From Deltaproteobacteria bacterium (GTDB lineage: Bacteria > Desulfobacterota > DSM-4660 > Desulfatiglandales > B25-G16), in contig CP070673.1 of NCBI GenBank assembly GCA_020351915.1, positions 4,812,889 through 4,844,888 of the forward strand: DNA of 32,000 nt. The letters are read 5' to 3'. Shown here in pieces: positions 2,134 through 28,127 of the stretch (position 1 is the first letter of the stretch; every line of letters begins with the position of its first letter). Under the pieces are notes generated by a model. That model made no database searches and was not told where the DNA came from. It was given only the letters and a program-made list of their open reading frames with translations. A program made the translations under genes and the position numbers.

Positions 2134-2151
2134 AACGACCTCCTTCAAGAC

Positions 2152-6513: not shown

Positions 6514-6568
6514 AAAACCTCCTCCTCATTTTGATTGGGAAAGAAACGTTCGTTTACATACTATACTG

Positions 6569-7377: not shown

Positions 7378-7418
7378 TGTCATTGTCTCCACAGATTTCA
7401 AAATGCATATCCGGTTTC

Positions 7419-8849: not shown

Positions 8850-8872
8850 TCCTTCCTCCTGTCGTATATTTT

Positions 8873-10534
8873 CTATAAATGGTTGTTCTGGAGCCTCGCC
8901 TCATTTTTGAGTTTCTCTACGATGTCTTGGGCAAGTCGCTTCTTATCTACTTTTTGTTCTCCTACCATGGGGAGTCGCTCTACAATAACCAGCTTTTCTG
9001 GCAGTTTATATGTGGCAATGCCTTTCTCCTTGAGGAAAGAGATCATTTCATCAAACGAAAAATCCTGGCCAGGCTTAGGCACGAGGTAAACACATGCCTT
9101 CTCACCCATAACGGGATCGGGCATCCCCACGATGGCAACGTCCAACACTTTGGGATGAGTCAAGAGTAAGTCCTCGACCTCAACGGGGTAGATATTCTGT
9201 CCTCCTCGAATGATCATGTCTTTCTTCCGGCCCATGACAAAAATGTTGTCTTGCTCATCAAATCTACCCAGATCACCGAGCTTGAACCAGCCATCCTTGG
9301 TCCAGGCCTGCCAGGTAGACTCGAGGTCTTTAAAGTATCCTGAGGCACAAGCTGGTCCTCTTCCCCATATCTCTCCAACTTCCCCTTTTGCCACTTCTTT
9401 GCCAGCGTCGTCAACCAATTTTATTTCAGTCCCACCCCTCGCCTTACCGACTGTTGGCAAACGAACCTCGGGGGGGTCATCAAATCGGGTAGCGGTCGTA
9501 CCACCAAAATCTACTGCACCAATTCCTGTAATTACCATTCCTCCCAGTTTCTCTTCGGCTTCCACTCTAAGCTGGTAAGAGACCGGGGCCCCAACGCACC
9601 ACCAGACTCGTAGCGAACTGAGATCGCAGCGCTCGATGTCAGGATGCCCCACCATCTTGGCCAGTTGGGCTGGAACAACCAAGCCGACGGTGATCCTCTC
9701 ATCTTGAATCAACCCGAGGCTTTCCCCAGCCTCAAAACGCTCTTGCACGACAATCTTTGCACCCACTCCCGGTGCAGCAAAATAAGCTACACAATTAGGC
9801 CCAGCTGGTGCAGGGCCAAAGACACCGATGATATCGTTGCCAGTAAGTTCCAAAACCTCCGAAAGTGTGCGGGCAAGGTTATGGCGAGCACAGAAGGGAA
9901 ATTCGACAAACTTTGGAAAACCAGTGGTACCGCTCGTGAGGGTAATGATCGAAACCTCCGTGGAAGCATAACTTCTCTCTTCAAGGAGGCTTGTGGGGTA
10001 TTTTTCTTTTAAGGGCCGCTGGATCATCTCATTAATAGAGATTGCCCCTTGAGGGACCTTGTCACCCATTACGAAAATATACCTCAGCGATGGCAGATTG
10101 GGCCAAATCTCCTTTATCATGTTAAAGTAATCGAAATCTCTATACACCCCTGGGTTGATCACCCCCAGTGCTCCACAATGTTTTATGATGTATTCCATTT
10201 CCCTACGCCGCAAAGTCATCAATCCATGTAGGGAAAGGATGCCAGCCTTCTCACAGGCCACCCTCAGTAAGGGAAGCTCGGCACAGTTAGGTAGCTGAAT
10301 GACAATACTATCATCCTTCTCAAAACCTATTTCCACCAACCCCCAGGCCAACCTATCTATTACCTGCTCAGCCTGGGCCCAAGTTAGCCTGGTCTTGGAG
10401 TCCACAATCGCCTCTTTGTCAGGATAGTCTCTGGCATTTCGGTCCCACAATCTGGACAGACTTGTGGGCTCCCACCATCCCCTTTCCATATATTCACTGA
10501 TCAATTCTGGAGTGTATCGAGTTGGCTTTGCCAT
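8873..10534 (-). CDS. AMP-forming acyl/aryl-CoA ligase (adenylate-forming superfamily; aryl/alicyclic-acid type N-terminus)
   Basis: 553 aa. Motifs: LTSGTTGFPKFV (A3/P-loop), GWFKLGDLGRFDEQDNIFVMGRKKDMIIRGGQNIYPVEVE (A7/A8) and the C-terminal Lys region ..GEQKVDKK... The N-terminal Y..RGWW...T pattern resembles aryl-acid activating enzymes. Confidence 0.9.
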   Translation of the reverse strand: MAKPTRYTPELISEYMERGWWEPTSLSRLWDRNARDYPDKEAIVDSKTRLTWAQAEQVIDRLAWGLVEIGFEKDDSIVIQLPNCAELPLLRVACEKAGILSLHGLMTLRRREMEYIIKHCGALGVINPGVYRDFDYFNMIKEIWPNLPSLRYIFVMGDKVPQGAISINEMIQRPLKEKYPTSLLEERSYASTEVSIITLTSGTTGFPKFVEFPFCARHNLARTLSEVLELTGNDIIGVFGPAPAGPNCVAYFAAPGVGAKIVVQERFEAGESLGLIQDERITVGLVVPAQLAKMVGHPDIERCDLSSLRVWWCVGAPVSYQLRVEAEEKLGGMVITGIGAVDFGGTTATRFDDPPEVRLPTVGKARGGTEIKLVDDAGKEVAKGEVGEIWGRGPACASGYFKDLESTWQAWTKDGWFKLGDLGRFDEQDNIFVMGRKKDMIIRGGQNIYPVEVEDLLLTHPKVLDVAIVGMPDPVMGEKACVYLVPKPGQDFSFDEMISFLKEKGIATYKLPEKLVIVERLPMVGEQKVDKKRLAQDIVEKLKNEARLQNNHL

Positions 10535-10689
10535 TGAGGTTTTCCCCTTATTAGTGTGCTCTAACTCAGTGTCTGAAACTTTATTCTTAAAGCTTCGTCT
10601 TAATATCCTGGCAGGTCAGCCCTACCGCATCCCCAAATGATAGGTCATAGGATTTCAGGTGGCGCCTTCTCACAAAAGCAGGGTAGACA

Positions 10690-10700
10690 GTGTGTCACAC
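10690..10700. promoter_or_regulatory. Palindrome GTGTG-t-CACAC in the reductase/ligase intergenic region
   Basis: Perfect 5-1-5 inverted repeat seen directly in the sequence. Candidate operator. No assigned regulator. Confidence 0.25.
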
Positions 10701-10760
10701 ATTCTCTTACGATTCGTAAAAAATGAGTTACCTTAAGGAGAGGTATGTTATGCCAAAAGC

Positions 10761-10788
10761 CCTTGGGGGAAAGAAATTTCTTTGCTAT
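10761..10788. promoter_or_regulatory. 14-bp perfect palindrome AAAGAAATTTCTTT plus a third AAGAAATT half-site
   Basis: 10761-10774 is self-complementary with no loop, so it is more likely a protein-binding site than an RNA hairpin. The half-site AAGAAATT recurs at 10781-10788. It lies between the reductase stop (10845) and the ligase start (10534). Confidence 0.3.
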
Positions 10789-10844
10789 TAAGAAATTATT
10801 ATTTTCAAGGTGTCAGACGTAAGAGGGTCTTCTATCCGTCCAGT

Positions 10845-12752
10845 TCAAAGTTTTGCGGCTACATAGTAAGCCTCCTGCATAGCCTCTCCCAATTTACGCG
10901 GTTGTAAAGAATCGCCTACCTGGTAAAGCTGGGGCACTTCTGCTTTCAGTGCTTGAGCTAAACCATCGTTGGACTTCATGCCCACAGCGAGGATAATGTC
11001 ATCAGCTTGGAAAAATTCACTCTGTTCTTTGCGCAAGACCTCAACGCCATCCTCTCTAAACCGTATGACCTCAACGCCAGTCTCAAGTCTGACCCCGGCC
11101 TCTCTCAGTCTCGAAAGGAGCCTCCAGCGAAGGGTGGGTCCCATGTCCCCTGCCATTCTGTCAAGCATCTCCAGCACAGTCACATTTTTACCCTTCTTAC
11201 TCAGTAACTCAGCAGTCTCACACCCTACCATGCCGCCACCCACGATAATGACCCCGTTGCCCACTTCCTTCATTCCCATAAGCACGTCCAATGCTGTAAC
11301 CACGTTTTTCCCTTCAATTCCAAGAATATCTGGCAAAAGCGGGCTGGCCCCTGTTGCCAGAATAAGAGCATCAGCCTCTCTCACTTCTGGTGCTTGAGCG
11401 GTGGCCTCATGACTTAGTTTGAATAAAACTCCCTGTTTTTCCATTTGACCAACGAAATACCTATTCAAGTCACCGAAGTCGCTCTTAAAAGGTGGGATAG
11501 AGGCGACTTGAAGATTCCCCCCAAGTTCGTCCTCCTTTTCTAAGAGAGTCACTTCGTGGCCTCGCTTTGCAGCTATTACTGCTGCCTCCATCCCGGCCGG
11601 TCCCCCTCCTATTACGACCACCTTCTTTCTATCCACTGCTGGCTTGATCGCATATTCTGGGTCACTCTCTCTCCCAGCCCTAGGATTGACGACACACCAT
11701 ATGGGCCTTCCCTGAAACACGTTGTCGTAACAACCCTGGCAGCAGCAAATGCACGGAATAATGTCTTCGGGGCGATTTTCAGCCAATTTTTGAGGTATCT
11801 CAGGGTCAGCTATAAAGGGACGCGATGCCTCCCAAAGGTCTATGATACCTGCGTTGATCGCCTTGTCCGCTTCTGTATGTGTGACGCGGTAGGCCATCAT
11901 CGTCGGAATCTTGACGACCTTCTTTATCCGTTCAGCTAAATAAAGCCAGTGTCCCCGTGCTATCTCCCCAGTAATTGCAGGGACCGTCGATTCGTGCCAT
12001 CCCACCGTAAGGCTCAGGGCATCAACGCCAGTTTCCTCAAGCATCTTTGCCACGTTTGTCAGCTCTTCAGGGCTGCTGCCTTCGGGCATTAATTCGTCGC
12101 CGCACATGCGGAACACCAGGGGAAACTCCTTTCCTGTCTTAGATTTTATTGCATCGACCACCTCTGAGCTGAAACGAGCCCTATTTTCCAAGCTGCCACC
12201 GTATTGATCAGTACGTGTATTTGTCCAAGGGGAGAGAAAGCTTGAGAGAAGATATCCAGCGCAGGCACATACTTCTACAGCATCGAACCCGGCCACTTTC
12301 GCCCTTCTTGCTGTTTCCCCAAAGGCCCTTACTAATTCAGCGATTTCTGTTTCACTCAGTTGGCGGGGCTCCGCCCGGGTCATAATCCGTGTTGGTACGG
12401 ACGAGGCATCTGTTAATTCCTCTCGACGGTAGGTGTACCTGCCACAATGACCAATAGAGAGACAGGCCTTGGCTCCTCCTGAATGAATTGCTTCGGCCAG
12501 TTCACGAAAATCGGCAATAAAACTATCATCCCAACCGCCCAACATATTGGGGACTAGACGGCCCCAAGGCGTGACGTGAGAAATCCCCGTGGTCACGAGA
12601 CCTACGCCTCCTTTCGCGCGCTCTTCCAACCACCTTTTCTCCTGCTCAGTTACTCTTCCCTCTTTAGTGCAAAAACAGGTGGTCGTGGATGCGAATTTGA
12701 CCCTGTTTCGCAGACACAAATTACCAATATACCCTTCCTCAAGTAACATCAT
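10845..12752 (-). CDS. OYE-family FMN/[4Fe-4S]/FAD oxidoreductase (2,4-dienoyl-CoA reductase / enoate reductase / 2-naphthoyl-CoA reductase-like architecture)
   Basis: The N-terminal OYE TIM-barrel pattern is present (L.LRNR...., RAKGGVGLVTTG, IGHCGR). There is a Cys cluster CICCCQGC...C, then two Rossmann motifs, VVVIGGGPAGMEAA and VIIVGGGMVGCETA. The track start at 12764 is TTG. The ATG at 12752 lies 5 nt after GGAGG and is preferred (MMLLEEGYIGN..). Confidence 0.9.
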   Translation of the reverse strand: MMLLEEGYIGNLCLRNRVKFASTTTCFCTKEGRVTEQEKRWLEERAKGGVGLVTTGISHVTPWGRLVPNMLGGWDDSFIADFRELAEAIHSGGAKACLSIGHCGRYTYRREELTDASSVPTRIMTRAEPRQLSETEIAELVRAFGETARRAKVAGFDAVEVCACAGYLLSSFLSPWTNTRTDQYGGSLENRARFSSEVVDAIKSKTGKEFPLVFRMCGDELMPEGSSPEELTNVAKMLEETGVDALSLTVGWHESTVPAITGEIARGHWLYLAERIKKVVKIPTMMAYRVTHTEADKAINAGIIDLWEASRPFIADPEIPQKLAENRPEDIIPCICCCQGCYDNVFQGRPIWCVVNPRAGRESDPEYAIKPAVDRKKVVVIGGGPAGMEAAVIAAKRGHEVTLLEKEDELGGNLQVASIPPFKSDFGDLNRYFVGQMEKQGVLFKLSHEATAQAPEVREADALILATGASPLLPDILGIEGKNVVTALDVLMGMKEVGNGVIIVGGGMVGCETAELLSKKGKNVTVLEMLDRMAGDMGPTLRWRLLSRLREAGVRLETGVEVIRFREDGVEVLRKEQSEFFQADDIILAVGMKSNDGLAQALKAEVPQLYQVGDSLQPRKLGEAMQEAYYVAAKL

Positions 12753-13205
12753 ATCGGCCTCCAATTTTGCGCTTAAACTGATCGTATAGAAATCTCTTTC
12801 TTGAGTTCGCCACAGGCCGGAATCATAAAAAATCGCGAACCAATTTTATAACCTCGCTGGACCCTTATCCTATTTTCGTTATGCTACATTTGAAATGATT
12901 CCTTTGGATTCCGCACGTTACCAATGGTGGCTATGTTAAACCCCGAAACCGTGGGTGTCAAGCTCTCTGAGGTGATAGTGGTTAGAACACCCTTTTGACC
13001 CAAGGCGCTATAAGGATAAAATTGCTTGGATGACAAACGGGAAATTCCTGTTGACTTTTGAGCGATAGTCTATTTTATAGAAAATATCATGTGACCGCTC
13101 AAAAAGGTATTTCCCAGGCTTTGAAAGTCTTCTGCGCTACCGAATTTGTCAAACATTGAATCATGCTTTCACCCAGTTGGCTTGGGAAAGAGGAGGAGGT
13201 AGATT

Positions 13206-14104: not shown

Positions 14105-15514
14105 ATGATCGGCATTATTTCATATGGTGCCTACGTTCCCCTTTGGAGACTGAGAAGAGAGGTTATATCCAGAGGAGGGCGAGGTGAGAAAAGCGTGGCA
14201 AGCTTTGATGAAGACAGTTTAACCATGGCGGTATCTGCGGTTAACAACTCTTTGGCAGGTATGGACAGGGAGTTGGTGGATGCCTTATTTTTCGCTTCAA
14301 CAACCTTTCCTTATAAAGAGAAACAGGGCTCAAGTATAGTTGCGGCGGCCACTGATCTCCGAAGAAATATATTAACTATTGACTCCGCCAATACGCTGAG
14401 AGGGGGCACAAGCTCGGTTAAGCTTGCTAAAGATATGGTGAGAGCTGGATCAGCGAGAAATATAGCTGTCGTGGCTTCCGATTGCCGATTAGGAGAGCCT
14501 GGGTCAGTTTTTGAACAGATCTGTGGCGATGGTGCTGGAGCTCTCGTAATTGGCGATACCGATGTTGCGGTTGAAATAGAGGGCACCTACTCGGTATACA
14601 ATGAGATGATTGATGTCTGGCGGGCAGACGACGACAAATTTGTCCGTGCCTGGGAAGATAGGTTTATTCAATCACAGGGATATATTAAGGGGATCCAAGG
14701 GGCGGTCACGGCTTTAATGAAGGATCACAGCATGGAACCCAGGGACTTTGCCAAGGCGGTTATCTATGCCCCAGACCAAAAAAGGGTTGCGGAGTTAGTT
14801 GCCAAACTTGGCTTTGATCCCGAAAAACAGTTGCAGGATCCTTTAATTTCGGCGATGGGGAATACAGGAACGGCCTACCCACTGATGCTTTTAATTGCAT
14901 CCCTTGAAGATGCCAAGCCTGGTGATAGAATTCTGTGGGCCAGTTATGGTGACGGCAGTGATGTCCTTATTCTCAAGGTCGCCGAAGCCATAGAGAATAT
15001 CAGAGACAGGAAGGGTATGAAAAAACTCCTGGCATCCAAAAAAGACCTAGGGGACTATACTGCATATCTGACAAGGAAAGGCTTGCTTAAGATGGATAGG
15101 GGACCAAAATACTCTCCTCAAGTTGTTTCCGCGACAGCATTATGGAGGGATTTGGATGAGGTTATTCGACTTTATGGGGTCAAGTGCAACTCATGTGGCA
15201 CTATTCAATACCCGCCCCAGAGAATATGTACCAAATGCCATGCCAGGGATCAATTCGAAAAGGTGAGGCTTTCTGACAAAAGAGCAAAGCTATTTACGTA
15301 TTCCCTCGATTTCGTATCCAATCCCCTAGAAGTACCGATGGTTGTGCCGGTTATTGATTTTGACGGAGGTGGCCGTTCAGCCGGCATTATTATGACTGAT
15401 CAGGACCCCAAGGAGCTACAGATCGGCATGCCGTTGGAGATGAGTTTCAGAAAGTTATTCAGTAATGACGGTATACATAATTACTTCTGGAAGTGCGCCC
15501 CCTTGAGGACTTAA
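14105..15514 (+). CDS. Fusion protein: HMG-CoA synthase-like (thiolase-fold) domain + C-terminal DUF35 zinc-ribbon/OB-fold domain, copy 1
   Basis: The track start at 14096 is GTG. The ATG at 14105 lies 8 nt after AGGAGG and matches the paralog N-terminus (MIGIISYGAYVPLWRL vs MVGITSYGAYIPFLRL). The HMGCS-like segment has ..DEDS(L/I)TMAV.., GDGAGAL and GNTG. The C-terminal part has CNSCGTIQYPPQRICTKC plus an OB-like tail ..IDFDGGGR...IGMPLEMSFRK. Confidence 0.85.
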   Translation: MIGIISYGAYVPLWRLRREVISRGGRGEKSVASFDEDSLTMAVSAVNNSLAGMDRELVDALFFASTTFPYKEKQGSSIVAAATDLRRNILTIDSANTLRGGTSSVKLAKDMVRAGSARNIAVVASDCRLGEPGSVFEQICGDGAGALVIGDTDVAVEIEGTYSVYNEMIDVWRADDDKFVRAWEDRFIQSQGYIKGIQGAVTALMKDHSMEPRDFAKAVIYAPDQKRVAELVAKLGFDPEKQLQDPLISAMGNTGTAYPLMLLIASLEDAKPGDRILWASYGDGSDVLILKVAEAIENIRDRKGMKKLLASKKDLGDYTAYLTRKGLLKMDRGPKYSPQVVSATALWRDLDEVIRLYGVKCNSCGTIQYPPQRICTKCHARDQFEKVRLSDKRAKLFTYSLDFVSNPLEVPMVVPVIDFDGGGRSAGIIMTDQDPKELQIGMPLEMSFRKLFSNDGIHNYFWKCAPLRT

Positions 15515-15535
15515 TAATCAAATTTAGGAGGGATT

Positions 15536-16717
15536 ATGGGTGGAATAAAGGATAAAATTGCGATCGTAGGCATGGGTTGCAGCAAGTTTGGAGAGCTTTG
15601 GGATAAAAGCCAGAATGATCTTATGATAGAGTCTTGCTATGAGGCATTGGATGATGCAGGGATTGATACAAAGGATATCCAGGCAGCCTGGTTGGCGACG
15701 GCCGAAAGCGGTCGAACGGGGATGAGACTTGCCCGGGCATTGAAGACCGATTACATCCCTGTGACCAGAGTTGAGAATCTCTGCGCCAGCGGAACCGATG
15801 CAATGCGCCAGGCCTGTTATGCAGTGGCGGCGGGGATATACGATATTGTCCTTGTCTGTGGATTCGAAAAGTTGAAGGATACGAAAGATCTCTTTGGAGG
15901 CAGCCTCGAGGGGCCTTGGAACACCAAGATTGATCCCAATTTGCCGCCGGCTACAGCATACGCTTTGGCAGCTAACCGGTATTTTCACCAGTACGGTTTA
16001 AGCCCTGAGGAGGGTAAGGAGATATTAGGCAAGATTGCCGTAAAGAATCATCGTAATGGGAGTCTGAATCCCAAGGCCCATTTCCAAAGGGAGATCACCC
16101 TGGAACAGGCCATAAAAGCCCCTATGATTGCCGCCCCGTTGGGGTTATATGATTGCTGTGCTGTGAGTGATGGATCAGCCGCGGCTGTGATTACTAGGGC
16201 TGAGCTAGCCAAAAAACTCAGGGATGACTATGTCCTGGTTAAGTCGGTTCAAGTGGTTACTGGTGCTTATGAAAGGCCATTACAAAACGATGCGGATTTT
16301 GTCCATTTTGAGGAAAATGTGGTCGCTGCTAACTTGGCTTATAAAGAAGCTGGAATCACTGATCCACGAAAGGAGATCGACTTGGCCATTGTTCATGACT
16401 GCTTTACAATCACTGAATTAATCATCTACGAAGACCTGGGGTTCAGCCCTCGCGGACAGGCCAAAGAGGATGTCAATGCAGGCACCTTCGAGTTGGGTGG
16501 AGGACTGCCGGTGAATACTGACGGAGGGTTGAAATGTTTCGGCCATCCTATTGGCGCAAGCGGTTTGAGAATGCTGTACGAGGCGTATAAGCAATTACAG
16601 GACAAAGCTGGTCCCCGTCAGGTGAAAAATGCCAACATAGCTTTGACGCACAACATAGCTGGGACTCCACGTGAATCATCTGTTTCTGGAATAACCATTT
16701 TAGGGCGTAGGAACTAG
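15536..16717 (+). CDS. SCP-x/archaeal-type thiolase (thiolase-like, non-FadA type), copy 1
   Basis: 393 aa. Motifs: VAIVGMGCSKFGE, nucleophile region VENLCASGTDA, IVHDCFTITE and NTDGGLKCFGHPIGASGLRM. RBS AGGAGG. Starts 21 nt after the upstream fusion gene. Confidence 0.9.
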   Translation: MGGIKDKIAIVGMGCSKFGELWDKSQNDLMIESCYEALDDAGIDTKDIQAAWLATAESGRTGMRLARALKTDYIPVTRVENLCASGTDAMRQACYAVAAGIYDIVLVCGFEKLKDTKDLFGGSLEGPWNTKIDPNLPPATAYALAANRYFHQYGLSPEEGKEILGKIAVKNHRNGSLNPKAHFQREITLEQAIKAPMIAAPLGLYDCCAVSDGSAAAVITRAELAKKLRDDYVLVKSVQVVTGAYERPLQNDADFVHFEENVVAANLAYKEAGITDPRKEIDLAIVHDCFTITELIIYEDLGFSPRGQAKEDVNAGTFELGGGLPVNTDGGLKCFGHPIGASGLRMLYEAYKQLQDKAGPRQVKNANIALTHNIAGTPRESSVSGITILGRRN

Positions 16718-16965
16718 GAAAAGTGACTTTAGACCTTAACCGCTCATCCAAATAAGTTTAGACCCACCAATTCGGTATTCTGATATGGAACATTTGCTTT
16801 GCAAATTCTGGCATTCGAGGTTTCTCCCGTAATCCTGCGGGATGATTGAAGTGAAGTAACTTGTTTGTCGAGGGATTTCCTTTTTTCACCCTCTCTTAAG
16901 CTCTTCTCTTTGAAGGGAGAGGGCCGAATAAAGGCATTAACTTGCTTTAGTTAAGGAGGCGTATA

Positions 16966-18963
16966 ATGAAAGAATTGAAACAAGTAACCGTTTTGGGTGC
17001 TGGTGCTATGGGAGGCGGATTGGCCTTATTATGCTCCGAGTCCGGGTTTGATGTAAAAGTGAGAGATATCGAAGAGGAGTATCTAGAGAAAGGACGTAAT
17101 ACCATTGAAAATCAATTAGATAGGAGAATAAAGAGGGGGAAGTTCACAGAGGAAGGCAAGAACAATGTGCTCGGCAGGATACAATTTACCACAGATTTAA
17201 AAGAGGCCGTAAAAGACGCGGACTATATCATAGAGGCCGTAACTGAAGAAATGGATATAAAGCAAAAATTATTTAAAGAGGTTCACCAATATGCACCCAA
17301 GCATGCCATCTTTGGCTCCAATACCTCCTCCTTTGTAATTAGTGAAATCGCTGCGGCTATTCCTGAGCCAGAGAGAGTCATAGGTATTCATTTCTTCAAC
17401 CCTCCGAGCGCCATGAAACTCTTAGAAATCATTTATGGAGAGAAGACCAGTGAGGAAACGATCAAGGTGACAGATGAGTTTGCGAAGTTATTAGGCAGAG
17501 AAGTCATCTATTGTTTAAAGGATAGCCCAGGTTTTGTAACCACTCGCCTCATTACCATAATGATTAGTGAGTCTGGATGGGCAGTGGACTTGGACGGCGC
17601 GAATATACCTGAGGTGGATGCAGCCTTGAAATACAGGCTGGGACTTCCCATGGGCATGTTTGAGTTCAGTGACGTTCTAGGTGGAGGAGGTGGTGTTGCG
17701 TTACAGCATAAAGTGACACGCTATCTGAGCAGCAAGTTAGGGGAGACTTACAGAAATGCACCTATCATGGAAAAGAAGTATGAGTCAGGTGAATGGGGCG
17801 TGACCAGCGGGAAGGGATTTTATGATTGGTCAGAAGGCAAGAAAAACGAGATCCCCTTCAAATTAGCGAGCAATTTTGATCCCATCAGGATCTTGGCCCC
17901 CTTGGCTAACGAGGCTGTTAAGCTCGTCGAAAATGGGATAATGACAAAGGAGGATCTAGACAAGGCTTTGATACTTGGCCTTGGCTTTCCAAGGGGCCTT
18001 CTTAGAATGGCCGACAGCATCGGCCTGGATAAGATAGTCACAAAGGTTAATGAACTGTTTGATACCCACAAGGAGGAAAGGTATAGATGCTCTCCCATGT
18101 TGGCTAGCCTTGTTAAAAAAGGAAACCTGGGAAGAAAAACAGGCGACGGCATTTATTCATATGGGCCAGGAGAATATGAGTTTATTACCTTGGATTTCGA
18201 TAAGAAAAAAGGGATCGCTAAGCTAACCATCAACCGGCCCCTCCGGGCAAACGCCCTCAATGTTGACTGTTTTTCAGAGATAAATAAGGCATTAGATGCC
18301 TTTGAAGCGAGCGATGAAGTCAAGTGTTTAGTTATTACAGGAGCGGGAAGAGTTTTTTGTGCGGGGGCTGACATCTCCATGTTTGGTGCAAGGGATGTGA
18401 CGGAGTTGCTGAATATGAGTACCCCGGTTCAGGAATTGCTAACAAGACTTGAGACCCTGAACAAACCTGTAATCGCCGCAATAAACGGGGCTTGCCTGGG
18501 AGGCGGTCTGGAGCTGGCAATCGCATGTGATTTGAGGATCGCCAAAGAAGGCGCGATCTTGGGCTTTCCTGAGGCGAATCTTGGGATTTTCCCTGGGGCG
18601 GGTGGCACGCAGCGTGTTACCAGATTAATTGGACTAGCCCGGGCCAAGGAGCTTGTCCTAATGGCCCAAAACATAACAGCTCAGAAGGCCCTAGATTGGG
18701 GATTGGTGAACGCGGTCGCCGAGCCGGATAAGTTTGAATCTACGGTTGAGGAGATGGCTCAAACGCTGGCAGATAAGGCCAGCTTGGCCCAAGGTATAGC
18801 CAAACGAGTGATGTATTATGGAGCTCAAGCAGACCAAAGAACGGCCCTTTTTCTGGAGGGTTTTAGCTCTCCTCCGGCAATTCTGTCTGATGATGCCAGC
18901 GAAGGCATTACAGCGTTTATGTACAGGCGCAAACCCAACTTTGGAGCAAAGAATGAGAAGTGA
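16966..18963 (+). CDS. Bifunctional 3-hydroxyacyl-CoA dehydrogenase (N-terminal) / enoyl-CoA hydratase (C-terminal) fusion
   Basis: 665 aa. The N-terminal Rossmann motif is VTVLGAGAMGGGLA, followed by GSNTSS and HFFNPPSAMKLLEI (HACD signatures). The C-terminal crotonase fold has ITGAGRVFCAGADI, GGGLELAIACDLRIA and PEANLGIFPGAGGTQR (both hydratase Glu positions present). TAAGGAGG RBS. Confidence 0.9.
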   Translation: MKELKQVTVLGAGAMGGGLALLCSESGFDVKVRDIEEEYLEKGRNTIENQLDRRIKRGKFTEEGKNNVLGRIQFTTDLKEAVKDADYIIEAVTEEMDIKQKLFKEVHQYAPKHAIFGSNTSSFVISEIAAAIPEPERVIGIHFFNPPSAMKLLEIIYGEKTSEETIKVTDEFAKLLGREVIYCLKDSPGFVTTRLITIMISESGWAVDLDGANIPEVDAALKYRLGLPMGMFEFSDVLGGGGGVALQHKVTRYLSSKLGETYRNAPIMEKKYESGEWGVTSGKGFYDWSEGKKNEIPFKLASNFDPIRILAPLANEAVKLVENGIMTKEDLDKALILGLGFPRGLLRMADSIGLDKIVTKVNELFDTHKEERYRCSPMLASLVKKGNLGRKTGDGIYSYGPGEYEFITLDFDKKKGIAKLTINRPLRANALNVDCFSEINKALDAFEASDEVKCLVITGAGRVFCAGADISMFGARDVTELLNMSTPVQELLTRLETLNKPVIAAINGACLGGGLELAIACDLRIAKEGAILGFPEANLGIFPGAGGTQRVTRLIGLARAKELVLMAQNITAQKALDWGLVNAVAEPDKFESTVEEMAQTLADKASLAQGIAKRVMYYGAQADQRTALFLEGFSSPPAILSDDASEGITAFMYRRKPNFGAKNEK

Positions 18964-19032
18964 GATGGGATAGTCCAATTAGATTAAGAAAAGAGGAAAG
19001 ATTCGAGGGTATGAAGGAACAAGGAGAAAACA

Positions 19033-20430
19033 ATGGTTGGTATTACGTCATATGGTGCTTATATACCCTTCTTGAGGCTGGACAAAGCTGCCCTTCGAGC
19101 TAAAGGAGAAAAGGCTGTAGCTAATTTTGACGAGGACAGCATAACCATGGCGGTAGCTGCGGGTGTCGACTGTGTAGAGGGTTTTGACAGCACTGGTATA
19201 AACGGGCTCTTTTTGGCTACGACGACATCGCCTTATAAGGAGAAGCAGGCTGCTGCGACAGTTGCCCTGGCCATGGATTTGCCCAGTGAGATTCGGACTG
19301 CTGATTTTGGTGGCTCTTTGAGGGCGGGAACAGCGGCTTTGGGGTCGGCGATAGATGGTATTCAAAGCGGTTCTATGAAAAGCGTGATGGTCATTGCATC
19401 AGATTGCCGGATGGGTTCTCCTAAAAGCCAGTATGAACAGTTGGTTGGGGATGGAGCTGCCGCGTTACTATTGGGAGATAGCGGTGTCATTGCTAGTGTG
19501 GAGGGCAGTTATTCTATCTCGAATGAAATATTGGACGTATGGAGAAAGGATGGGGATCCTTTTATTAAGTGGTGGGAAGACCGTTTTATTCTGAGCCAAG
19601 GGTATCAGGAGGTCGTACAGAGGTGTGTTTCAGGTTTGATGCAGAAATATGGGGTAACTGCCAAGGACTTTACAAAGGTTATCTTATATGCACCAAACCC
19701 GAGGGTTCCTGTCGGTTTGGCAAAGAGGTTGGGTTTTGATATTGAGAACCAGGTTCAGGATCCGTTGCTTATGATGGTAGGCAACACAGGGGCTGCCTCT
19801 GTTATGATGATGCTGGTGTCAGCCCTAGAAGAAGCCAAGGTGGGAGATAGGTTTTTGGTAATCAGTTATGGTGATGGCTGTGACAGTTATATTTTTCGGG
19901 CTACGGAGAAGATCAAGGACCTTAAAGAGAGGCGTGGGGTTAAGGGCCATATAACATCCAAACAGGTGCTATCAAGCTATGAGAAATATGATATGTTGCG
20001 TCATCTTACTCCAGTTGAGGGCAATCCGATGGTACAGCACATGTTAGCCTCGGCCGTAGCCATATGGAGGGAACGGAAAAAGAACATTGCCTTTTATGGT
20101 AAAAAGTGCAAGCAGTGTGGGACGCCACAGTATCCGCCTCAGCGGATATGCACCGTGTGTCAGAGCAAGGATGAGATGGAAGATTATCGATTTTCCGACA
20201 AAAAGGGTAAGGTTTTCACATACACCTGGACGGCTGCTGCCCCTGTGGGGGATCCGCCACTGGTTTATGCTATTGTGGATTTTGAAGGAGGAGGAAGGAT
20301 TTTCACCGAGATGACTGACAGGGATCTTTCCAAGCTTGAAGTAGGTATGCCGGTAGAGATGACATTCAGGAAGATGCAGATACCGGGGGCTTTCCACGAC
20401 TACTTTTGGAAATGTAGGCCGTTGAGATAG
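19033..20430 (+). CDS. Fusion protein: HMG-CoA synthase-like domain + C-terminal DUF35 zinc-ribbon/OB-fold domain, copy 2
   Basis: 465 aa, colinear with 14105-15514 over the full length. Shared strings include SYGAY(V/I)P, FDEDS(L/I)TMAV, PYKEKQ, ASDCR(L/M)G, GDGA, WEDRFI(Q/L)SQGY, GNTG and SYGDG. The zinc ribbon is CKQCGTPQYPPQRICTVC and the tail is VGMPVEMTFRK..YFWKC(A/R)PLR. Confidence 0.85.
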   Translation: MVGITSYGAYIPFLRLDKAALRAKGEKAVANFDEDSITMAVAAGVDCVEGFDSTGINGLFLATTTSPYKEKQAAATVALAMDLPSEIRTADFGGSLRAGTAALGSAIDGIQSGSMKSVMVIASDCRMGSPKSQYEQLVGDGAAALLLGDSGVIASVEGSYSISNEILDVWRKDGDPFIKWWEDRFILSQGYQEVVQRCVSGLMQKYGVTAKDFTKVILYAPNPRVPVGLAKRLGFDIENQVQDPLLMMVGNTGAASVMMMLVSALEEAKVGDRFLVISYGDGCDSYIFRATEKIKDLKERRGVKGHITSKQVLSSYEKYDMLRHLTPVEGNPMVQHMLASAVAIWRERKKNIAFYGKKCKQCGTPQYPPQRICTVCQSKDEMEDYRFSDKKGKVFTYTWTAAAPVGDPPLVYAIVDFEGGGRIFTEMTDRDLSKLEVGMPVEMTFRKMQIPGAFHDYFWKCRPLR

Positions 20431-20442
20431 AGAGGGGATCAA

Positions 20443-21630
20443 ATGGAGAGCATTGAGGACAAGGTTGCTATCGTTGGTATGGGTTGTACCAAATTCGGGG
20501 AGCTATGGGACAAGAGTGGTGATGATTTGCTGATCGATGCAACTTATGAAGCCCTTGAGGATGCCGGGATTGGACCCGAGGATGTTCAGGCGGCATGGTT
20601 TGGGACGGCTTGGTCCGGTCTCACTGCTTTAAACGTGAGTGTTCCTCTGAAGACACAATACATTCCGGTGACCAGGGTGGAAAATATATGTGCTACCGCA
20701 ACTGAGGCTTTGCGAGCGGCCATTTATGCCATAGCAGCCGGGGCGTGTGACGTGGCTCTGGCCGTTGGTATGGAAAAGCTGAAGGATACCTTCGGCGTTG
20801 TGGGCCCACAGGGGTCAGATATTGGCATTTCCTCAATGGGAACTTCGGGCATAGAAAGGATTCACATTCCGACCGTTTATTACTCGATGCTTGCGGTGAG
20901 GTATTTTCATCGCTATGGAATGAGTGTGGAAAAAGGTAAGGAGCTTATTGCTCGAATCCCCGTGAAGAGTCACCATAATGCCTCGATGAATCCGAAGGCT
21001 CATTTTCGGAATGAAATAACGATGGATCAGGTCCTCAAGGCTCCGATCATTGCGTATCCATTGGGATTACTTGATTGCTGTGGGTATAGTGATGGGGCAG
21101 CAGCGGCCGTAGTGACGAGGGCGGACATGGCAAAGAGTTTTCGAGATGACCCTATCTCTATCAAGGCCTTATCCGTGAACGTGGGGGCTCGTCAGGGTTT
21201 CCTGCAGCAGGATTACGACTATACCCATGTGGAGGCAAATCGTCGTGCCGCCCAAGCCGCCTATAAAGAGGCAGGGATAAGCAATCCTCTTAAGGAACTG
21301 TCTATGGCCGAGGTTCATGATTGTTTTTCGATTCATGAGTTGGTCATCTATGAGGATCTTCAATTTTGCCCTCCTGGCGGAGCCAAAGAATATATCGAGG
21401 GCGGTGTCTTTGAACTGGATGGAGAGCTGCCGGTCAATACTGATGGTGGCCTAAAGTGTTTTGGCCACCCGTTTGGGGCCAGCGGTTTGAGGATGATCTA
21501 TGAAGCGTATTTGCAGTTGCAAGGGAAGGCCGGTCCTCGTCAGGTGAAGGATCCCCAGCTTGCATTATGTCATAATCTTGGAGGTGGCCCGGGCCAGGGC
21601 ATTGGCAGTGTAGTTATCTTTGGAAATTGA
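20443..21630 (+). CDS. SCP-x/archaeal-type thiolase, copy 2
   Basis: 395 aa, colinear with 15536-16717. Motifs: VAIVGMGCTKFGE, VENICATATEA, EVHDCFSIHE and NTDGGLKCFGHPFGASGLRM. Starts 12 nt after the upstream fusion gene. Confidence 0.9.
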   Translation: MESIEDKVAIVGMGCTKFGELWDKSGDDLLIDATYEALEDAGIGPEDVQAAWFGTAWSGLTALNVSVPLKTQYIPVTRVENICATATEALRAAIYAIAAGACDVALAVGMEKLKDTFGVVGPQGSDIGISSMGTSGIERIHIPTVYYSMLAVRYFHRYGMSVEKGKELIARIPVKSHHNASMNPKAHFRNEITMDQVLKAPIIAYPLGLLDCCGYSDGAAAAVVTRADMAKSFRDDPISIKALSVNVGARQGFLQQDYDYTHVEANRRAAQAAYKEAGISNPLKELSMAEVHDCFSIHELVIYEDLQFCPPGGAKEYIEGGVFELDGELPVNTDGGLKCFGHPFGASGLRMIYEAYLQLQGKAGPRQVKDPQLALCHNLGGGPGQGIGSVVIFGN

Positions 21631-22452: not shown

Positions 22453-23739
22453 TTATTTGATCGCCTTCAATCCTGAAGGGAGCTGAATCTTCGCTTCGGC
22501 TATCGACTCAGGATAGATAACGACCATTTGGCCATCCTTAGTCCACTGAATCACGCATGCCATAGCCGCCTCTTTGGGATCGAAACCATAAGGAACCTGA
22601 TGCCCCTCATCAAACCTGATCCTTCCCATAACGCCCATTCGATCGGTCTTTTCAACCTCGGCTACAATTGCATCAGGGTCAAGGCTGCCCGCCCGTTCGA
22701 TCGCCTCAGCAAGAACATAGACAGCCTCATAGGAAGGTGCTGGCCCATGACCGACTGGCCCAGGTGGATACTCCCCCCATCTCTTCACAAAGGCATCATA
22801 AAAGGCTATGGATTTGGGCATCTTCTTCGCCCCCGTCCCACTTCCTACTTCCAAAGCCATATCAATGCAACCAGCGATCTTTCCGTCATAGTGCTTCCAG
22901 GCCCCACGATAAGCGAATTGTGTTGACTGGCCGGTCATGAGTGCTGGGATTTTCATTGATATCCACAGCTTGGTCAGGATGCTGGCCTCGGCCATACTAA
23001 AAAAGGTCAAGAGCACCTGAGCCCTCTCGGCCTTCGCCTTCATCAGTCCGGTTGAGAAATCGGTACTGCCCGAAGGATAAATATCTTGACCTAAAACGGC
23101 CCAACCGTTTTTATCAAACCATCCGGCCATCATTTCAGCGCTTTTCCTCGCGAACATTACATCTTGAACATACAAATACACCCTATTAAAACCGAACTCC
23201 TTATTTATCTCAGCCATCAGACCGGATAAATACATCCCGGCATACCTGGAGGTAAGGCACAGTCTGAAGATGTATTTGTACTTCTCAGGATTTTCTCTTA
23301 TCCGCGCCTCAGACGCTGGGCTCATGGCGATACTACCCAACATGGGAACCTTGTGCTTTGCTATAATATCCATACTGGCAAGAAGGACCTCTGAGCGGAA
23401 TGGCCCGACCACTATAGCGTGGACCTTCTTCTCCAGTATGGTCTTTTCCAATGCCAAAAGACCCTCAGTTACCGGGACCCCCGGCTCTGCGCCCCGGGTG
23501 TCAGCAGTTACGATTTTAAAAGGTCTTCTGGTTGATCCGACCTTAACCCCTCCTTTGGCGTTAATCTCGTCGACAGCCAGCTGCACTGCCTTATAGCTGA
23601 GGTCGCCTGCAAAGAATTTTAAAGAGGTAACTACGCCCAGCACTATAGGCTCAGCTGCCCGGCCAACACCTCCAGTTAAGTTAATAGAAAAGCACATGAC
23701 GGCAAAAAACACAATGAGTACCTGAAGGATTCTTTTCAT
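22453..23739 (-). CDS. Periplasmic/extracytoplasmic substrate-binding protein of a Liv-type (branched-chain amino acid / aromatic acid) ABC transporter
   Basis: The N-terminal signal peptide is MKRILQVLIVFFAVMCFSINLTGGVGRA/AEP. The type-I periplasmic binding fold pattern is IVLGVV...AVQLAVDEINAKGGV. The ATG at 23739 lies 8 nt after GGAGG and is preferred over the track start at 23754. Confidence 0.85.
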   Translation of the reverse strand: MKRILQVLIVFFAVMCFSINLTGGVGRAAEPIVLGVVTSLKFFAGDLSYKAVQLAVDEINAKGGVKVGSTRRPFKIVTADTRGAEPGVPVTEGLLALEKTILEKKVHAIVVGPFRSEVLLASMDIIAKHKVPMLGSIAMSPASEARIRENPEKYKYIFRLCLTSRYAGMYLSGLMAEINKEFGFNRVYLYVQDVMFARKSAEMMAGWFDKNGWAVLGQDIYPSGSTDFSTGLMKAKAERAQVLLTFFSMAEASILTKLWISMKIPALMTGQSTQFAYRGAWKHYDGKIAGCIDMALEVGSGTGAKKMPKSIAFYDAFVKRWGEYPPGPVGHGPAPSYEAVYVLAEAIERAGSLDPDAIVAEVEKTDRMGVMGRIRFDEGHQVPYGFDPKEAAMACVIQWTKDGQMVVIYPESIAEAKIQLPSGLKAIK

Positions 23740-24739
23740 AATCTCTACCTCCATACTTAAAAGTTATTAATCTGATACCTCGTGGAGCCCAAGCTACAAA
23801 TGCGGCCGAAAGGCTTCCTTACCGGGGCTTGTTATACACCCAGTCTTCTCCAAGGTACAATTCGTCTCCTTCTTTGGAATAATATAGTGATTCAAGAGGG
23901 GGAATAAGCTCTCGCATGCATGTAAGTTAGTATAGTGTAGAGTATTTTGTGTAAGTTGTGTAAAGGTAGAAAAATAGAGCTTATACTTTTCTAAGGATTT
24001 TACTTACCCCACTTTTTTTACTAAACCCCCCGGCTAATGTCAATATTTTTTCATTCCTGTAGCCCCCGAACAAAGCCCTGAGAATGGGCTTATCACATGA
24101 TACCCCGTATAACGTTTCAGTTCTTTCTGGAAAGAACTGATATCTGGCAGGTGTCAGTTGAGGGCTCTATCGAAGTCATGATAGAAGCTTCAGATCCTGA
24201 ACGATTGGGAACTGAGTGGCAAACGCATCCCCAACAGGCGCTGTGGAATCATAGTCTTGGCTTTGTCTATGGGGTAGGAAACAAAACTCGATTACTGCAT
24301 TGCTACAGGCAAGAGGTTGAATCTTTCAAAGAGGAAAGGATAATAGAAAATAGAGGATCGGTGAGCAGTCAAAAAGATCTGTGCGCCTTAGTCCACAGCT
24401 TTCTCTATTGACCTGTCTGAAACATTAGATACATGCAAAATTGCCTTACGTGATGCTTTGTATCCTTTACATAAAACACTTGCTTCCCTGAGTAGGATTC
24501 TGTTAATTTGGATTTGGCGCACAGACTGGCCGGAAGTCCACGAGAGGCATCTGCTTGGGGTGTAAGTGTTGTGGGGCGTAGAGACTAGAAATTACTGTAG
24601 TGGTTTCTCAATTGTTGCAATTGCTAAAATGGAACTGACAAAGGATGGCCAAACCGTCATTCTGCATCCAGAGTGGTTAGTTCAAGCCAATATTCAACTC
24701 CTCCAGGATTAAAGATGATTAAACAACACTGACAATGTA

Positions 24740-25618
24740 TTGGGTTCAATGCTTATTGGAAATTTAATATACGGATTACTCAATAGTGCTATCCTGGCGT
24801 TTATGGCCCTTGGTTTTAGCCTGACCTTTGGTATAAGTGGGGTAGCTAATTTTGCCCATGGGGCCCTATATGTCTTTGTCGGGTATGCGACGTTGGTTCT
24901 CTATGAGCAGTTGAGTTTTCCATATATTTTGTCTGTTGTGGTATCTACCCTTTTTGCGGGCCTTTTTGGTGGGCTCATGTATCGGTTTATTGTCCTGCGC
25001 GTACGTGGCCAGATTACTTCTGAGGTGATAGCTACATTTGGGGTGGGGCTGGTAATACTGGAATTAGTGCATTATTCTACTGGTGGTTATGCGTATAATC
25101 TGCCGGTTCTTGTTGACCGTAGTTTCGAGGTTGCGGGTGTATATATAGATGGGCAGCGGCTAATTATTTTAGCGGTCTGTGCAATACTCATCTTCTCTCT
25201 CTGGCTTTTCACCAATTATACCCGAATTGGCCGTGCCTTCAGGGGGATAGCACAGGATGAACGTACAGCTCTCTCCTTAGGCATAAATTCAGACTGGATG
25301 GCCACTTTGAGCATTTCCTTCGGTGCAATGCTGGCTGGCCTGGCCGCAATATGTATCTTTCCCTTAGGGTCTCTAGCTATTGGTGAGGGCTACAATGTCT
25401 TGCTGATGGCATTGGCCGTCAGTATTATAGGTGGTCTTGGTAGGACAGGGGGAGTAGTTCTTGCCAGTCTTTTTATTGGCTTTTCTGAGCAGTTCACAAA
25501 TTTCTATATAGGCCCAAACTTGAAAATGGTGGTCGGTCTTGCTGCTATGTGCTTAGTACTGGCTATCAAGCCCTCCGGTCTCCTTGGACAGCAGAAGGAA
25601 CTGGAAGAGAGGATTTAA
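24740..25618 (+). CDS. ABC transporter permease, LivH-like
   Basis: 292 aa, multi-pass hydrophobic. It has the N-terminal ..LLNSAILAFMALGFSLTFGISGVANFAHGAL.. signature of the LivH family. The start is uncertain (TTG 24740 per the track, or in-frame ATG 24749) and the RBS is weak. Confidence 0.85.
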   Translation: MGSMLIGNLIYGLLNSAILAFMALGFSLTFGISGVANFAHGALYVFVGYATLVLYEQLSFPYILSVVVSTLFAGLFGGLMYRFIVLRVRGQITSEVIATFGVGLVILELVHYSTGGYAYNLPVLVDRSFEVAGVYIDGQRLIILAVCAILIFSLWLFTNYTRIGRAFRGIAQDERTALSLGINSDWMATLSISFGAMLAGLAAICIFPLGSLAIGEGYNVLLMALAVSIIGGLGRTGGVVLASLFIGFSEQFTNFYIGPNLKMVVGLAAMCLVLAIKPSGLLGQQKELEERI

Positions 25619-26616
25619 TGGGGCAGCGAAAAGAGCGGTTAGATCGAGGCATCAAGGCGAGATCAGACGACATATATGCCCTATGCTCTTGGGGGGAAAT
25701 GGTTTATCTAGCTGGGCCGAGATTATTTCTTATTTTGGCTTTTGCATTTCTGCCACTTCTCTTGAACTATTACTGGCAAAAGGTGTTTTTATCTGCGGGT
25801 GTCTTTGCCATGTTGGCCATCAGCTGGGATATGTTAGAGCAAAGTGGGATGGTATCTCTTGGGCAAGCTTTCTTTTTTGGGGTAGGTGCTTATTTCGCCG
25901 GTATCATGAATCATTCGTGGGGCTGGCCTGTGTATGTCACCATCCCTATGGCGACTGTTTGTGGGGCCCTCTTCTGTACCATTTCCCTCTTACCAGTTTT
26001 AAGATTACGCGGAATATATTTTGCCATGGTGACTTTGATACTACCCATCATGCTGGGTAGGATAATTGAAGCTACAAAGATCTTTGGGGGTACAGTGGGG
26101 CTCAGCGGACTGGACCCACTTCCATCAAGATGGGTAGAACTATACCTTGTTCTGGCCGCCCTTGTGGCCGCCTTCTTTGGCTCTAGACGGCTAATGGATT
26201 CAGATTTTGGTTTAGCTCTCAAGGGTATGAAAGATAATGATCGATCCATTATGAGCGCTGGTATTAACATTTACTGGCTTAAGGCACAGATCCTATTTGT
26301 CTCTAGTGGCCTGGGAGCGTTTGTCGGCGCTTATATGACCCACGTGTACATGTTTGTTGGCATGCCTGCCTTCGCCTTGGACTATTCTATACTTCCTATT
26401 GCGGCCGCTGTCGTGGGTGGGGTGGGAACACTCACTGGTCCGATGTTAGGGGCCTTCATTCTGGTACCCCTGTCAGAGATCTTACGCGGTATTGGCGGCT
26501 TTCGCATGGCATTGTACGGATTTTTTCTAGTGTTTTTTATCGTGGGATTACCTGAAGGCATTTTTCACTATATCCAGAGGAAATATCATCAGTTCGAACG
26601 ATGGGTTGAGGTGTAG
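25618..26616 (+). CDS. ABC transporter permease, LivM-like
   Basis: The track ORF starts at 25549, inside the upstream gene. The in-frame ATG at 25618 overlaps the LivH-like stop (TAATG) and follows GGAAGAGAGGA. The product is hydrophobic with ..GQAFFFGVGAY.. and ..GGTVGL.., typical of LivM. Confidence 0.85.
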   Translation: MGQRKERLDRGIKARSDDIYALCSWGEMVYLAGPRLFLILAFAFLPLLLNYYWQKVFLSAGVFAMLAISWDMLEQSGMVSLGQAFFFGVGAYFAGIMNHSWGWPVYVTIPMATVCGALFCTISLLPVLRLRGIYFAMVTLILPIMLGRIIEATKIFGGTVGLSGLDPLPSRWVELYLVLAALVAAFFGSRRLMDSDFGLALKGMKDNDRSIMSAGINIYWLKAQILFVSSGLGAFVGAYMTHVYMFVGMPAFALDYSILPIAAAVVGGVGTLTGPMLGAFILVPLSEILRGIGGFRMALYGFFLVFFIVGLPEGIFHYIQRKYHQFERWVEV

Positions 26617-26618
26617 AG

Positions 26619-27374: not shown

Positions 27375-27375
27375 A

Positions 27376-28122: not shown

Positions 28123-28127
28123 CTCCT

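Follow-up and report, generated by a model that had tools for sequence, protein, structure and literature searches.

Two fused HMG-CoA synthase-like/DUF35 proteins without the Glu, Cys and His of the catalytic tetrad, predicted partners of SCP2-type thiolases in a catabolic operon of a deltaproteobacterium

The locus considered here lies in a 32,000-nucleotide stretch of the genome of a Deltaproteobacteria bacterium (assembly GCA_020351915.1, contig CP070673.1, positions 4,812,889 to 4,844,888), hereafter called the window, whose first letter is position 1. It carries a plus-strand operon of five genes in the order A1, T1, HE, A2, T2 (Table 1), in which a gene for a protein resembling hydroxymethylglutaryl-CoA synthase (HMGS) is twice followed by a thiolase gene, the two pairs flanking a gene for a 3-hydroxyacyl-CoA dehydrogenase (HADH)/enoyl-CoA hydratase (ECH) fusion. 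Only 21 nt separate the A1 stop from the T1 start, and 12 nt the A2 stop from the T2 start. The ATG at 14105 is likely the start of A1, because a 469-aa protein 100% identical to it is found in the database (P0001). A1 and A2 share 46.5% identity, T1 and T2 58.5%, and both couples are old duplicates with saturated synonymous divergence (dS). The initial annotation of this DNA, made from the letters alone, proposed that both HMGS-like domains have lost their catalytic Glu, Cys and His and are retained as non-catalytic elements; it correctly described both genes as uninterrupted.

Table 1. Positions of the operon genes, of the residues aligned with the HMGS catalytic tetrad and of the flanking genes in the window
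Feature	Positions	Strand	Description
A1	14105..15514	+	fused putative pseudo-HMGS (aa 1-~335) and DUF35 (aa ~336-469); uninterrupted open reading frame (ORF), 469 aa
A1 tetrad positions	14300-14302; 14396-14398; 14765-14767; 14861-14863		T66; L98; Y221; N253
T1	15536..16717	+	SCP2-type thiolase, predicted partner of A1; 393 aa
HE	16966..18963	+	3-hydroxyacyl-CoA dehydrogenase (N-terminal)/enoyl-CoA hydratase (C-terminal) fusion; 665 aa
A2	19033..20430	+	second fused putative pseudo-HMGS and DUF35; uninterrupted ORF, 465 aa
A2 tetrad positions	19222-19224; 19318-19320; 19687-19689; 19783-19785		T64; L96; Y219; N251
T2	20443..21630	+	SCP2-type thiolase, predicted partner of A2; 395 aa
Divergent upstream catabolic genes	1660..12764	-	outside the predicted complex; Pfam/NCBIfam matches
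Liv-type ABC transporter and second acyl-CoA ligase	22453..29774	binding protein -; two permeases and two ATPases +	

A1 and A2 are each built from two modules. The N-terminal ~335 residues are HMGS-like (phmmer against PDB sequences; PRK04262), with the archaeal HMGS chain 6ESQ_I as best PDB match (E 2.4e-34), PhlA second (5M3K_A, E 1.8e-30), and then the PhlA homolog 9SKH and MucA (9VBO). The C-terminal part matches the DUF35 chain 6ESQ_E of the same archaeal complex (E 8.3e-16). Indeed, Pfam recognizes in both proteins weak KASIII/HMGS-type N- and C-domains and then zf-ChsH2 and OB_ChsH2_C (aa ~350-450), which together make up the DUF35 module, a zinc ribbon and an OB fold. The zinc-ribbon cysteines are C361, C364, C375 and C378 in A1 and C359, C362, C373 and C376 in A2, and this Cys4 site is 97-99% conserved. 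Furthermore, an AlphaFold2 model of A1, computed with a 40-sequence alignment (pLDDT 81.8, pTM 0.85), gave 6ESQ_I as top Foldseek match (E 2.6e-28, target TM 0.83); the best PDB matches were 6ESQ_I, 6ET9_I, 9SKH, 5M3K and 9VBO (E 1e-28 to 1e-23), and the bacterial MvaS and FabH scored below them. Sequence comparison and, for A1, the model assign to the proteins the HMGS/KASIII fold of the thiolase superfamily. The HMGS-like domain of the initial annotation is therein borne out, although the DUF35 module at the C-terminus of each protein had gone unmentioned. The scores for the genuine synthase families stay below the cut-offs, at 225.6 and 220.3 bits for NCBIfam PRK04262 (cut-off 244) and 172.8 and 163.8 bits for TIGR00748 (cut-off 353).

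The catalytic positions were located by reference to the archaeal HMGS 6ESQ_I, whose tetrad is E82/C114/H238/N270. The 6ESQ_I and PhlA sequences were rebuilt from HMMER output and aligned with MAFFT, and the resulting numbering reproduces the published E82/C114/H238/N270 as well as the C/G/Q/D of PhlA at these positions (mut4 variant, PMC12960953). HMMER and MAFFT alignments agree in placing T/L/Y/N at the tetrad of both paralogs, the HMMER pairings of 6ESQ_I with A1 being GSES/ASTT, EFACKAGT/ANTLRGGT, FHQPN/IYAPD and LGNTYS/MGNTGT. The replacements of Glu by Thr and of Cys by Leu, first read by eye and said to be the same in both copies, are thus recovered: Glu82 aligns with T66 of A1 and T64 of A2, and Cys114 with L98 and L96. 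The loss of the His also stands, but its replacement is Tyr and not Ala as first proposed, since His238 aligns with Y221 of A1 and Y219 of A2 in the I/L-Y-A-P motif; the pairing FHxP/IYAP on which the initial annotation relied already implies the Tyr, and the discrepancy is an off-by-one. The fourth tetrad residue, Asn270, is kept (N253 and N251), and the neighbouring motifs GDGAGA, GNTG and SYGDG are present as described earlier.

Databases label many members of this family "hydroxymethylglutaryl-CoA synthase", and the PRK04262 scores lie only ~20 bits under the cut-off, as would be the case if A1 and A2 were genuine HMG-CoA synthases whose catalytic residues had been misaligned, the nucleophile being for instance the Cys of the ASDCR motif. 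We rejected this candidate: the Cys in question (A1 C127) aligns with an HMGS Thr and is a Cys in only 50 of 144 diverse members. HMMER, MAFFT and the Foldseek-supported fold, as three independent alignments, agree on T/L/Y and place no Cys/Glu/His triad at the catalytic positions. Furthermore, the archaeal enzyme mutated at all four tetrad residues is inactive, the fused complex of Pseudomonas fluorescens makes no HMG-CoA (PMC12960953), and the window holds no mevalonate-pathway genes. That A1 and A2 are working synthases is effectively refuted.

The replacements extend to the whole family. More than 5,450 proteins match at E<1e-10 in a word-indexed database and 3,360 at E<=1e-3 in a library clustered at 50% identity, 580 of the latter at E<1e-30. 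Fused proteins of ~470 aa make up almost the whole of the best 150 clustered matches. Among 120 close homologs, Thr is found in 119, Leu in all 120, and Tyr and Asn in 116 each; the full TLYN pattern occurs in 56 of 70 further A2 homologs. The 150 representatives, which go down to 33% identity, include not one with Glu at position 82 or Cys at position 114, and at non-gap positions of diverse representatives Thr occupies 122 of 141 and Leu 105 of 144, with positions 238 and 270 drifting in distant ones (Y/P/S/A and N/D/H/Y/F, respectively). The Glu, Cys and His are likewise missing from the fused proteins of cultured Azoarcus, Rhodococcus, Sphingomonas, Streptomyces and Haloferax volcanii. All in all, these three residues are replaced in both paralogs and in all ~340 homologs examined, and no fused member with an intact tetrad was found among the 150 representatives (50% clustering), the 190 closer homologs and the five examples from cultured organisms. 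By this comparison, the loss of the three residues is ancient and concerns the whole family.

Selection on the domain was estimated against locus L038, a 93%-identical ortholog of the present one, because the A1-A2 comparison is uninformative for the ratio of nonsynonymous to synonymous substitution rates (dN/dS), its dS being saturated (pS 0.77). This gave a ratio of 0.172 in the HMGS-like part and 0.155 in DUF35, compared with 0.103 in T1 and 0.155 in HE. Purifying selection thus acts on the HMGS-like domain much as it does on the neighbouring enzymes.

The HMGS-like domain could instead be neofunctionalized, with the conserved Thr/Leu/Tyr/Asn and the retained Arg and Asp forming a new site, Cys-independent and either catalytic or specific for a ligand. 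Such a site might, for example, accommodate the far end of an acyl chain that is bulky or dicarboxylic, or gate access to the thiolase. The replacements are indeed conserved rather than random (the Thr and Leu counts given above), Asn270, R99, D126, R128, E72 and D142 are at least 90% conserved, and the PhlA cavity of PpATase is continuous with the PhlC active site (PMC6392133). However, positions 238 and 270 vary freely in distant members, neither Leu nor Thr suggests an evident chemistry, R128, D126 and GDG go back to the HMGS/KASIII ancestor, and the PhlACB and MucABC structures put all catalysis in the thiolase subunit (PMC6392133, PMC12960953). We hold a new site of this kind to be very unlikely.

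The partners T1 and T2 are SCP2-type thiolases (Thiolase_C_1; PRK06157 at 548 and 537.6 bits, cut-off 403), and T1 matches the archaeal ACAT chain 6ESQ_A with an E of 4.7e-59. Aligned to 6ESQ_A, both have the Cys/His motifs that had been recognized by eye, namely the nucleophile C83 (NLCASG), H287-D-C289-F and G-H337-P in T1, and C83 (NICATA), H292-D-C294-F and G-H342-P in T2. Residues 83-85 of T2 (20689-20697) read C-A-T, compared with the ACAT C-x-S motif kept in T1 as C-A-S. These motifs bear on whether the pairs might be Friedel-Crafts-type C-acyltransferases like PhlACB and MucABC, using a phenolic acceptor from the neighbouring aromatic pathway, an idea consistent with a common tripartite ancestry, a dead HMGS-like subunit and the phenolic metabolism genes nearby (UbiD and 4-hydroxybenzoyl-CoA-reductase (Hcr)-like). 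Yet PhlC and MucB have lost the HDxF motif that T1 and T2 keep as HDCF, and T1 is much nearer to archaeal ACAT than to PhlC (E 6.2e-28) or MucB (E 3.1e-22). The window contains no polyketide synthase (PKS) or nonribosomal peptide synthetase (NRPS) genes and the operon encodes a hydratase/dehydrogenase, all of which makes acyltransferase function highly improbable.

The association of the fused gene with a thiolase gene is itself conserved. We surveyed 33 GTDB genome loci with a full-length relative of the fused gene, among them loci of Desulfobacterales, Desulfobacterium sp. N47, Syntrophaceae, Nitrospinae, Bacillota and many Dehalococcoidia. In 30 of the 33, a gene for an SCP2-type thiolase comes ~15-140 nt after it, and two more end too soon to tell. 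The remaining one, L019 of a Dehalococcoidales metagenome-assembled genome (MAG), has the fused gene (9992-11422) without a thiolase in 21 kb and is the only such locus surveyed; an acyl-CoA dehydrogenase gene and one resembling nitronate monooxygenase adjoin the fused gene, whose product has Met at the Cys position. The two genes are likewise adjacent on plasmids of Azoarcus, Rhodococcus, Sphingomonas, Streptomyces and Haloferax, in every case with beta-oxidation genes alongside. On pHV4 of H. volcanii (L046, 526483-528051) the fused gene HVO_RS04180 (522 aa) sits after its thiolase-like partner and adjoins paaK, HADH, ECH and MaoC genes and an IclR regulator; because of these neighbours, the arrangement suggests a role in phenylacetate catabolism. 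Three consecutive fused-gene/thiolase pairs stand on one MAG contig (L006). Three loci labelled Pseudomonadota/Proteobacteria, L005, L011 and L033, were considered as Pseudomonas and rejected as such: the L005 and L033 proteins are nearly identical to that of Desulfobacterium sp. N47 (L009), and L011 is an unclassified MAG.

Fused protein and thiolase have, furthermore, diverged together. Over 37 pairs, their pairwise identities correlate with r = 0.936 (Mantel 0/2000), and this co-divergence is paralog-specific, the difference between A1- and A2-likeness correlating with that between T1- and T2-likeness (r = 0.896). A2-like loci carry a T2-like thiolase (L049, 70%/77%; L050, 63%/70%) and A1-like loci a T1-like one (L040, 62%/76%). 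Each pair has duplicated and diverged as a unit, as expected of obligate partners. With conserved replacements, a dN/dS of 0.172, thiolase synteny in 30 of 33 loci and co-divergence, the earlier statement that this is not a decaying gene is well founded. Its inference of a conserved non-catalytic partner draws support from the same lines of evidence and from published biochemistry on a complex of the same architecture (PMC12960953).

Partners of this type have been described before, and the pairs of the window are further examples. In 2010, associations of an active and an inactive thiolase-superfamily member with a DUF35 protein, and fusions of DUF35 to thiolase-superfamily domains, were set out (PMC2954200), and PhlA was called an inactive member of the superfamily then and again in 2018 (PMC2954200, PMC6392133). 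The 2018 structure of PhlACB showed PhlA without the Cys114 and Glu82, PhlC as the only catalytic subunit, and PhlA and PhlB as non-catalytic but required for a folded, active complex; in 6ESQ, the CoA is bound at the interface of all three proteins (PMC6392133). Liao et al. (Nat Commun, Jan 2026) defined the E-C-H-N tetrad, whose mutation kills the archaeal enzyme, and mined 1,030 bacterial HMGS/ACAT/DUF35 clusters, 1,001 of them without a secondary-metabolism context (PMC12960953). They also reported in P. fluorescens a complex of a fused HMGS-DUF35 without the tetrad and an ACAT with Cys, HDxF and GHx, which makes neither HMG-CoA nor acetoacetyl-CoA and cleaves acetoacetyl-CoA, an activity nearly abolished by the ACAT substitution H294Y in HDxF (PMC12960953).

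This P. fluorescens PfACAT/HMGS-DUF35 shares with the window pairs the HMGS-DUF35 fusion, the tetrad loss, the adjacent ACAT with Cys/HDxF/GHx and the absence of a PKS/NRPS context. The window proteins, judged by their sequences, have every feature of this class except that they keep the tetrad Asn, whereas the whole E-C-H-N is reported as absent in P. fluorescens. Thiolytic activity has been demonstrated for the P. fluorescens complex and would be expected by homology for the window pairs, which differ in that two paralogous pairs share an operon with a HADH/ECH fusion gene, inside an anaerobic aromatic-degradation locus. The archaeal thiolase/HMGS/DUF35 complex (6ESQ) provides the best matches for all three modules and has the same thiolase motifs, but its HMGS is active, stands apart from DUF35 and belongs to an anabolic complex (mevalonate pathway), in contrast with the T/L/Y/N, the fusion and the catabolic setting found here. 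PhlACB (PpATase, 5M3K/5MG5) and MucABC (SmaATase, 9VBO/9VBT) also combine an inactive HMGS-like subunit, needed for a functional complex, with DUF35 and an SCP2-type thiolase-like catalytic subunit; they differ by their three separate polypeptides, the loss of HDxF, other tetrad replacements (C/G/Q/D in PhlA) and Friedel-Crafts acylation in antibiotic biosynthesis. Finally, the benzoylsuccinyl-CoA thiolase BbsAB (7PXP), which acts in anaerobic aromatic degradation, and the Saci_1121/1120 KT/DUF35 pair are SCP2-type thiolases with an obligatory Zn-ribbon/OB-fold partner and HDxF in catalysis, but without an HMGS-like module. BbsA is a stand-alone DUF35 protein, unlike the fused DUF35 of the window, and the NCBIfam scores fall well below the cut-offs (BbsB, 172.1 and 180.6 bits against 750; BbsA, 27.8 against 250).

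By its gene content, the locus is predicted to be a beta-oxidation operon inside an anaerobic aromatic-acid degradation locus. The minus-strand genes encode 4-hydroxybenzoyl-CoA-reductase-like FeS, FAD and Mo subunits (TIGR03194 at 773 bits) and a UbiD-family (de)carboxylase resembling the phenylphosphate carboxylase alpha subunit (434 bits), both scores being below the cut-offs, together with an acyl-CoA ligase and an OYE/FadH-type flavoenzyme. HE best resembles the models of 3-hydroxybutyryl-CoA dehydrogenase and short-chain enoyl-CoA hydratase, both below cut-off. Its domain order, dehydrogenase first, is the inverse of that of the bacterial FadB/FadJ and has been described as the archaeal arrangement (Saci_1109; bioRxiv 10.1101/2024.07.05.601840). 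The close A1 orthologs at L040 and L041 are embedded in a module of IclR regulator, fused gene, thiolase and 680-aa HE-type fusion, Liv transporter and CoA ligase, and an HE-type gene also follows the pair in L038. At L043, another A1 ortholog and its thiolase have three UbiD genes and genes for an Hcr-like enzyme as neighbours. The A2 orthologs are found beside 3-oxoacid CoA-transferase subunits and acetone-carboxylase-like genes (L049) or beside CoA-transferase and phosphoenolpyruvate-utilising enzymes (L050), contexts that generate acetoacetyl-CoA and so point to acetoacetyl-CoA as the substrate of the A2 type. By analogy, A1/T1 and A2/T2 most likely act as short-chain 3-oxoacyl-CoA thiolases; we infer a thiolysis of short 3-oxoacyl-CoAs ending a beta-oxidation-like route, e.g. 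crotonyl-CoA to acetoacetyl-CoA to two acetyl-CoA, 3-oxopimelyl-CoA after ring opening being another candidate substrate.

The same enzymes could in principle run in the condensing direction, biosynthetically or as reverse beta-oxidation, with the dead HMGS-DUF35 as a hub that docks the next enzymes and so draws the unfavourable Claisen condensation onward, as in the archaeal DUF35-mediated fatty-acid synthase complex. In Sulfolobus acidocaldarius, the KT/DUF35 complex, joined by a reductase and a dehydratase, drives condensation (bioRxiv 10.1101/2024.07.05.601840). The archaeal thiolase/HMGS/DUF35 complex likewise serves anabolism, and HE has the archaeal-type order of N-terminal dehydrogenase and C-terminal hydratase. 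However, the S. acidocaldarius fusion of that order belongs to beta-oxidation and not to synthesis (bioRxiv 10.1101/2024.07.05.601840), and the P. fluorescens complex cleaved acetoacetyl-CoA and made none from acetyl-CoA (PMC12960953). The locus itself is catabolic, encoding an uptake transporter and two CoA ligases as well as UbiD and an enzyme like 4-hydroxybenzoyl-CoA reductase, and the operon is without an enoyl-CoA reductase. A condensing role appears quite unlikely.

The explanation that we consider likely is that the dead HMGS-DUF35 proteins are fused partners of catabolic thiolase complexes, present here as two paralogous pairs; it starts from the fold, the fusion, the loss of Glu, Cys and His, the thiolase residues, selection, synteny, co-divergence and the catabolic context observed above. 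A1/T1 and A2/T2 would form two complexes with the architecture of the archaeal thiolase/HMGS/DUF35 complex; in sequence and in structure, the nearest matches are subunits of the solved tripartite complexes 6ESQ, 5M3K, 9SKH and 9VBO. The HMGS-like module, covalently fused to the DUF35 adaptor, would be catalytically dead, and all chemistry would be carried out by the SCP2-type thiolase through the nucleophile Cys83, the acid/base Cys and His of HDCF and the His of GHP. The reaction would be the thiolysis of a short 3-oxoacyl-CoA supplied by the HE fusion, acetoacetyl-CoA and 3-oxopimelyl-CoA being examples, and the operon would serve the beta-oxidation-like part of anaerobic aromatic or carboxylic-acid degradation. 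The pseudo-HMGS-DUF35 would be needed for assembly and stability and would probably help to form a CoA/acyl-binding cavity at the subunit interface. Complex formation, reaction direction, substrate and the exact role of the dead domain are proposed here by extension from homologs and the literature.

Several points weigh against this explanation, among them the locus L019 without a thiolase. Its support comes from sequences, a model and the biochemistry of homologs, and the likeness to P. fluorescens is drawn from its published description, the nearest proteobacterial fused members found (Azoarcus, Variovorax, Paraburkholderia) being only 30-33% identical over their full length. The BbsAB and Saci_1121/1120 pairs work without an HMGS-like subunit; for the retention of the dead module, the candidate roles are assembly and stability, a shared CoA/acyl cavity, or the docking of partner enzymes. 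Thiolase reactions can run both ways, and in archaea the KT/DUF35 complexes catalyse condensation. Finally, Asn270 and ancestral residues of the pocket region (DxR, GDGAGA and the R after the Cys position) are kept, because of which some ligand binding may persist in the old pocket. A more elaborate and, taken as a whole, unlikely version would have the dead HMGS-DUF35 organize a bacterial beta-oxidation metabolon: the old cavity and the CoA interface would hold the CoA ester, HE would dock, the 3-oxoacyl-CoA would be channelled to the thiolase, and the two pairs would provide two specificities (e.g. acetoacetyl-CoA and a dicarboxyl-CoA from ring cleavage).

Other features of the window concern the intergenic regions and its downstream end. 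The T1-HE intergenic region (16718-16965) gave no convincing promoter or terminator signal above shuffled sequences and is conserved only in the 93% ortholog. The divergent intergenic region of 1.3 kb between the OYE-type gene and A1 (12765-14104) is AT-richer (GC ~0.44) and contains only short low-complexity ORFs, and its promoter-like matches are no commoner than in shuffled sequence. Between the genes for the Hcr-like FAD (2152-3036, minus strand) and Mo (4240-6513, minus strand) subunits lies a gap of 1.2 kb (3037-4239) with no ORF above 96 aa in any frame, which is unusual within an apparent single operon. On the plus strand, 30477-30715 is a full-length match to the Rfam family group-II-D1D4-6 (RF02005, 102.9 bits, E 2.8e-28), without an accompanying D5-D6 match or a reverse-transcriptase ORF after it, and may represent a piece of a group II intron that is ORF-less or degenerate. 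A molybdopterin-oxidoreductase-like ORF with an N-terminal CxxCxxxC begins at ~30838, ~120 nt past this match, and runs to the window end.

Beyond the published cases, the present analysis adds that the His is replaced by Tyr and the Asn kept, that Thr and Leu are near-universal replacements in a very large family with bacterial and haloarchaeal members, and that both selection and co-divergence with the thiolase are supported quantitatively. While the authors of the P. fluorescens study see in their complex an "evolutionary intermediate" that has no pathway, the gene contexts found here argue for a regular role as working catabolic thiolases rather than unrecruited intermediates. Thousands of proteins of this family are mislabelled "hydroxymethylglutaryl-CoA synthase", a label that wrongly credits Desulfobacterales, Dehalococcoidia and other groups with a mevalonate pathway, and they are better read as non-catalytic partners of SCP2-type thiolases. 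The contribution of the dead domain becomes a defined biochemical question. The fused complex appears to be a widespread and selected part of beta-oxidation-like catabolism, whether in anaerobes, in aerobic degraders or in haloarchaea, with contexts that range from modules of IclR regulator, fused gene, thiolase, HADH/ECH, transporter and ligase to acetone-carboxylase/CoA-transferase clusters and UbiD/Hcr-like aromatic clusters.

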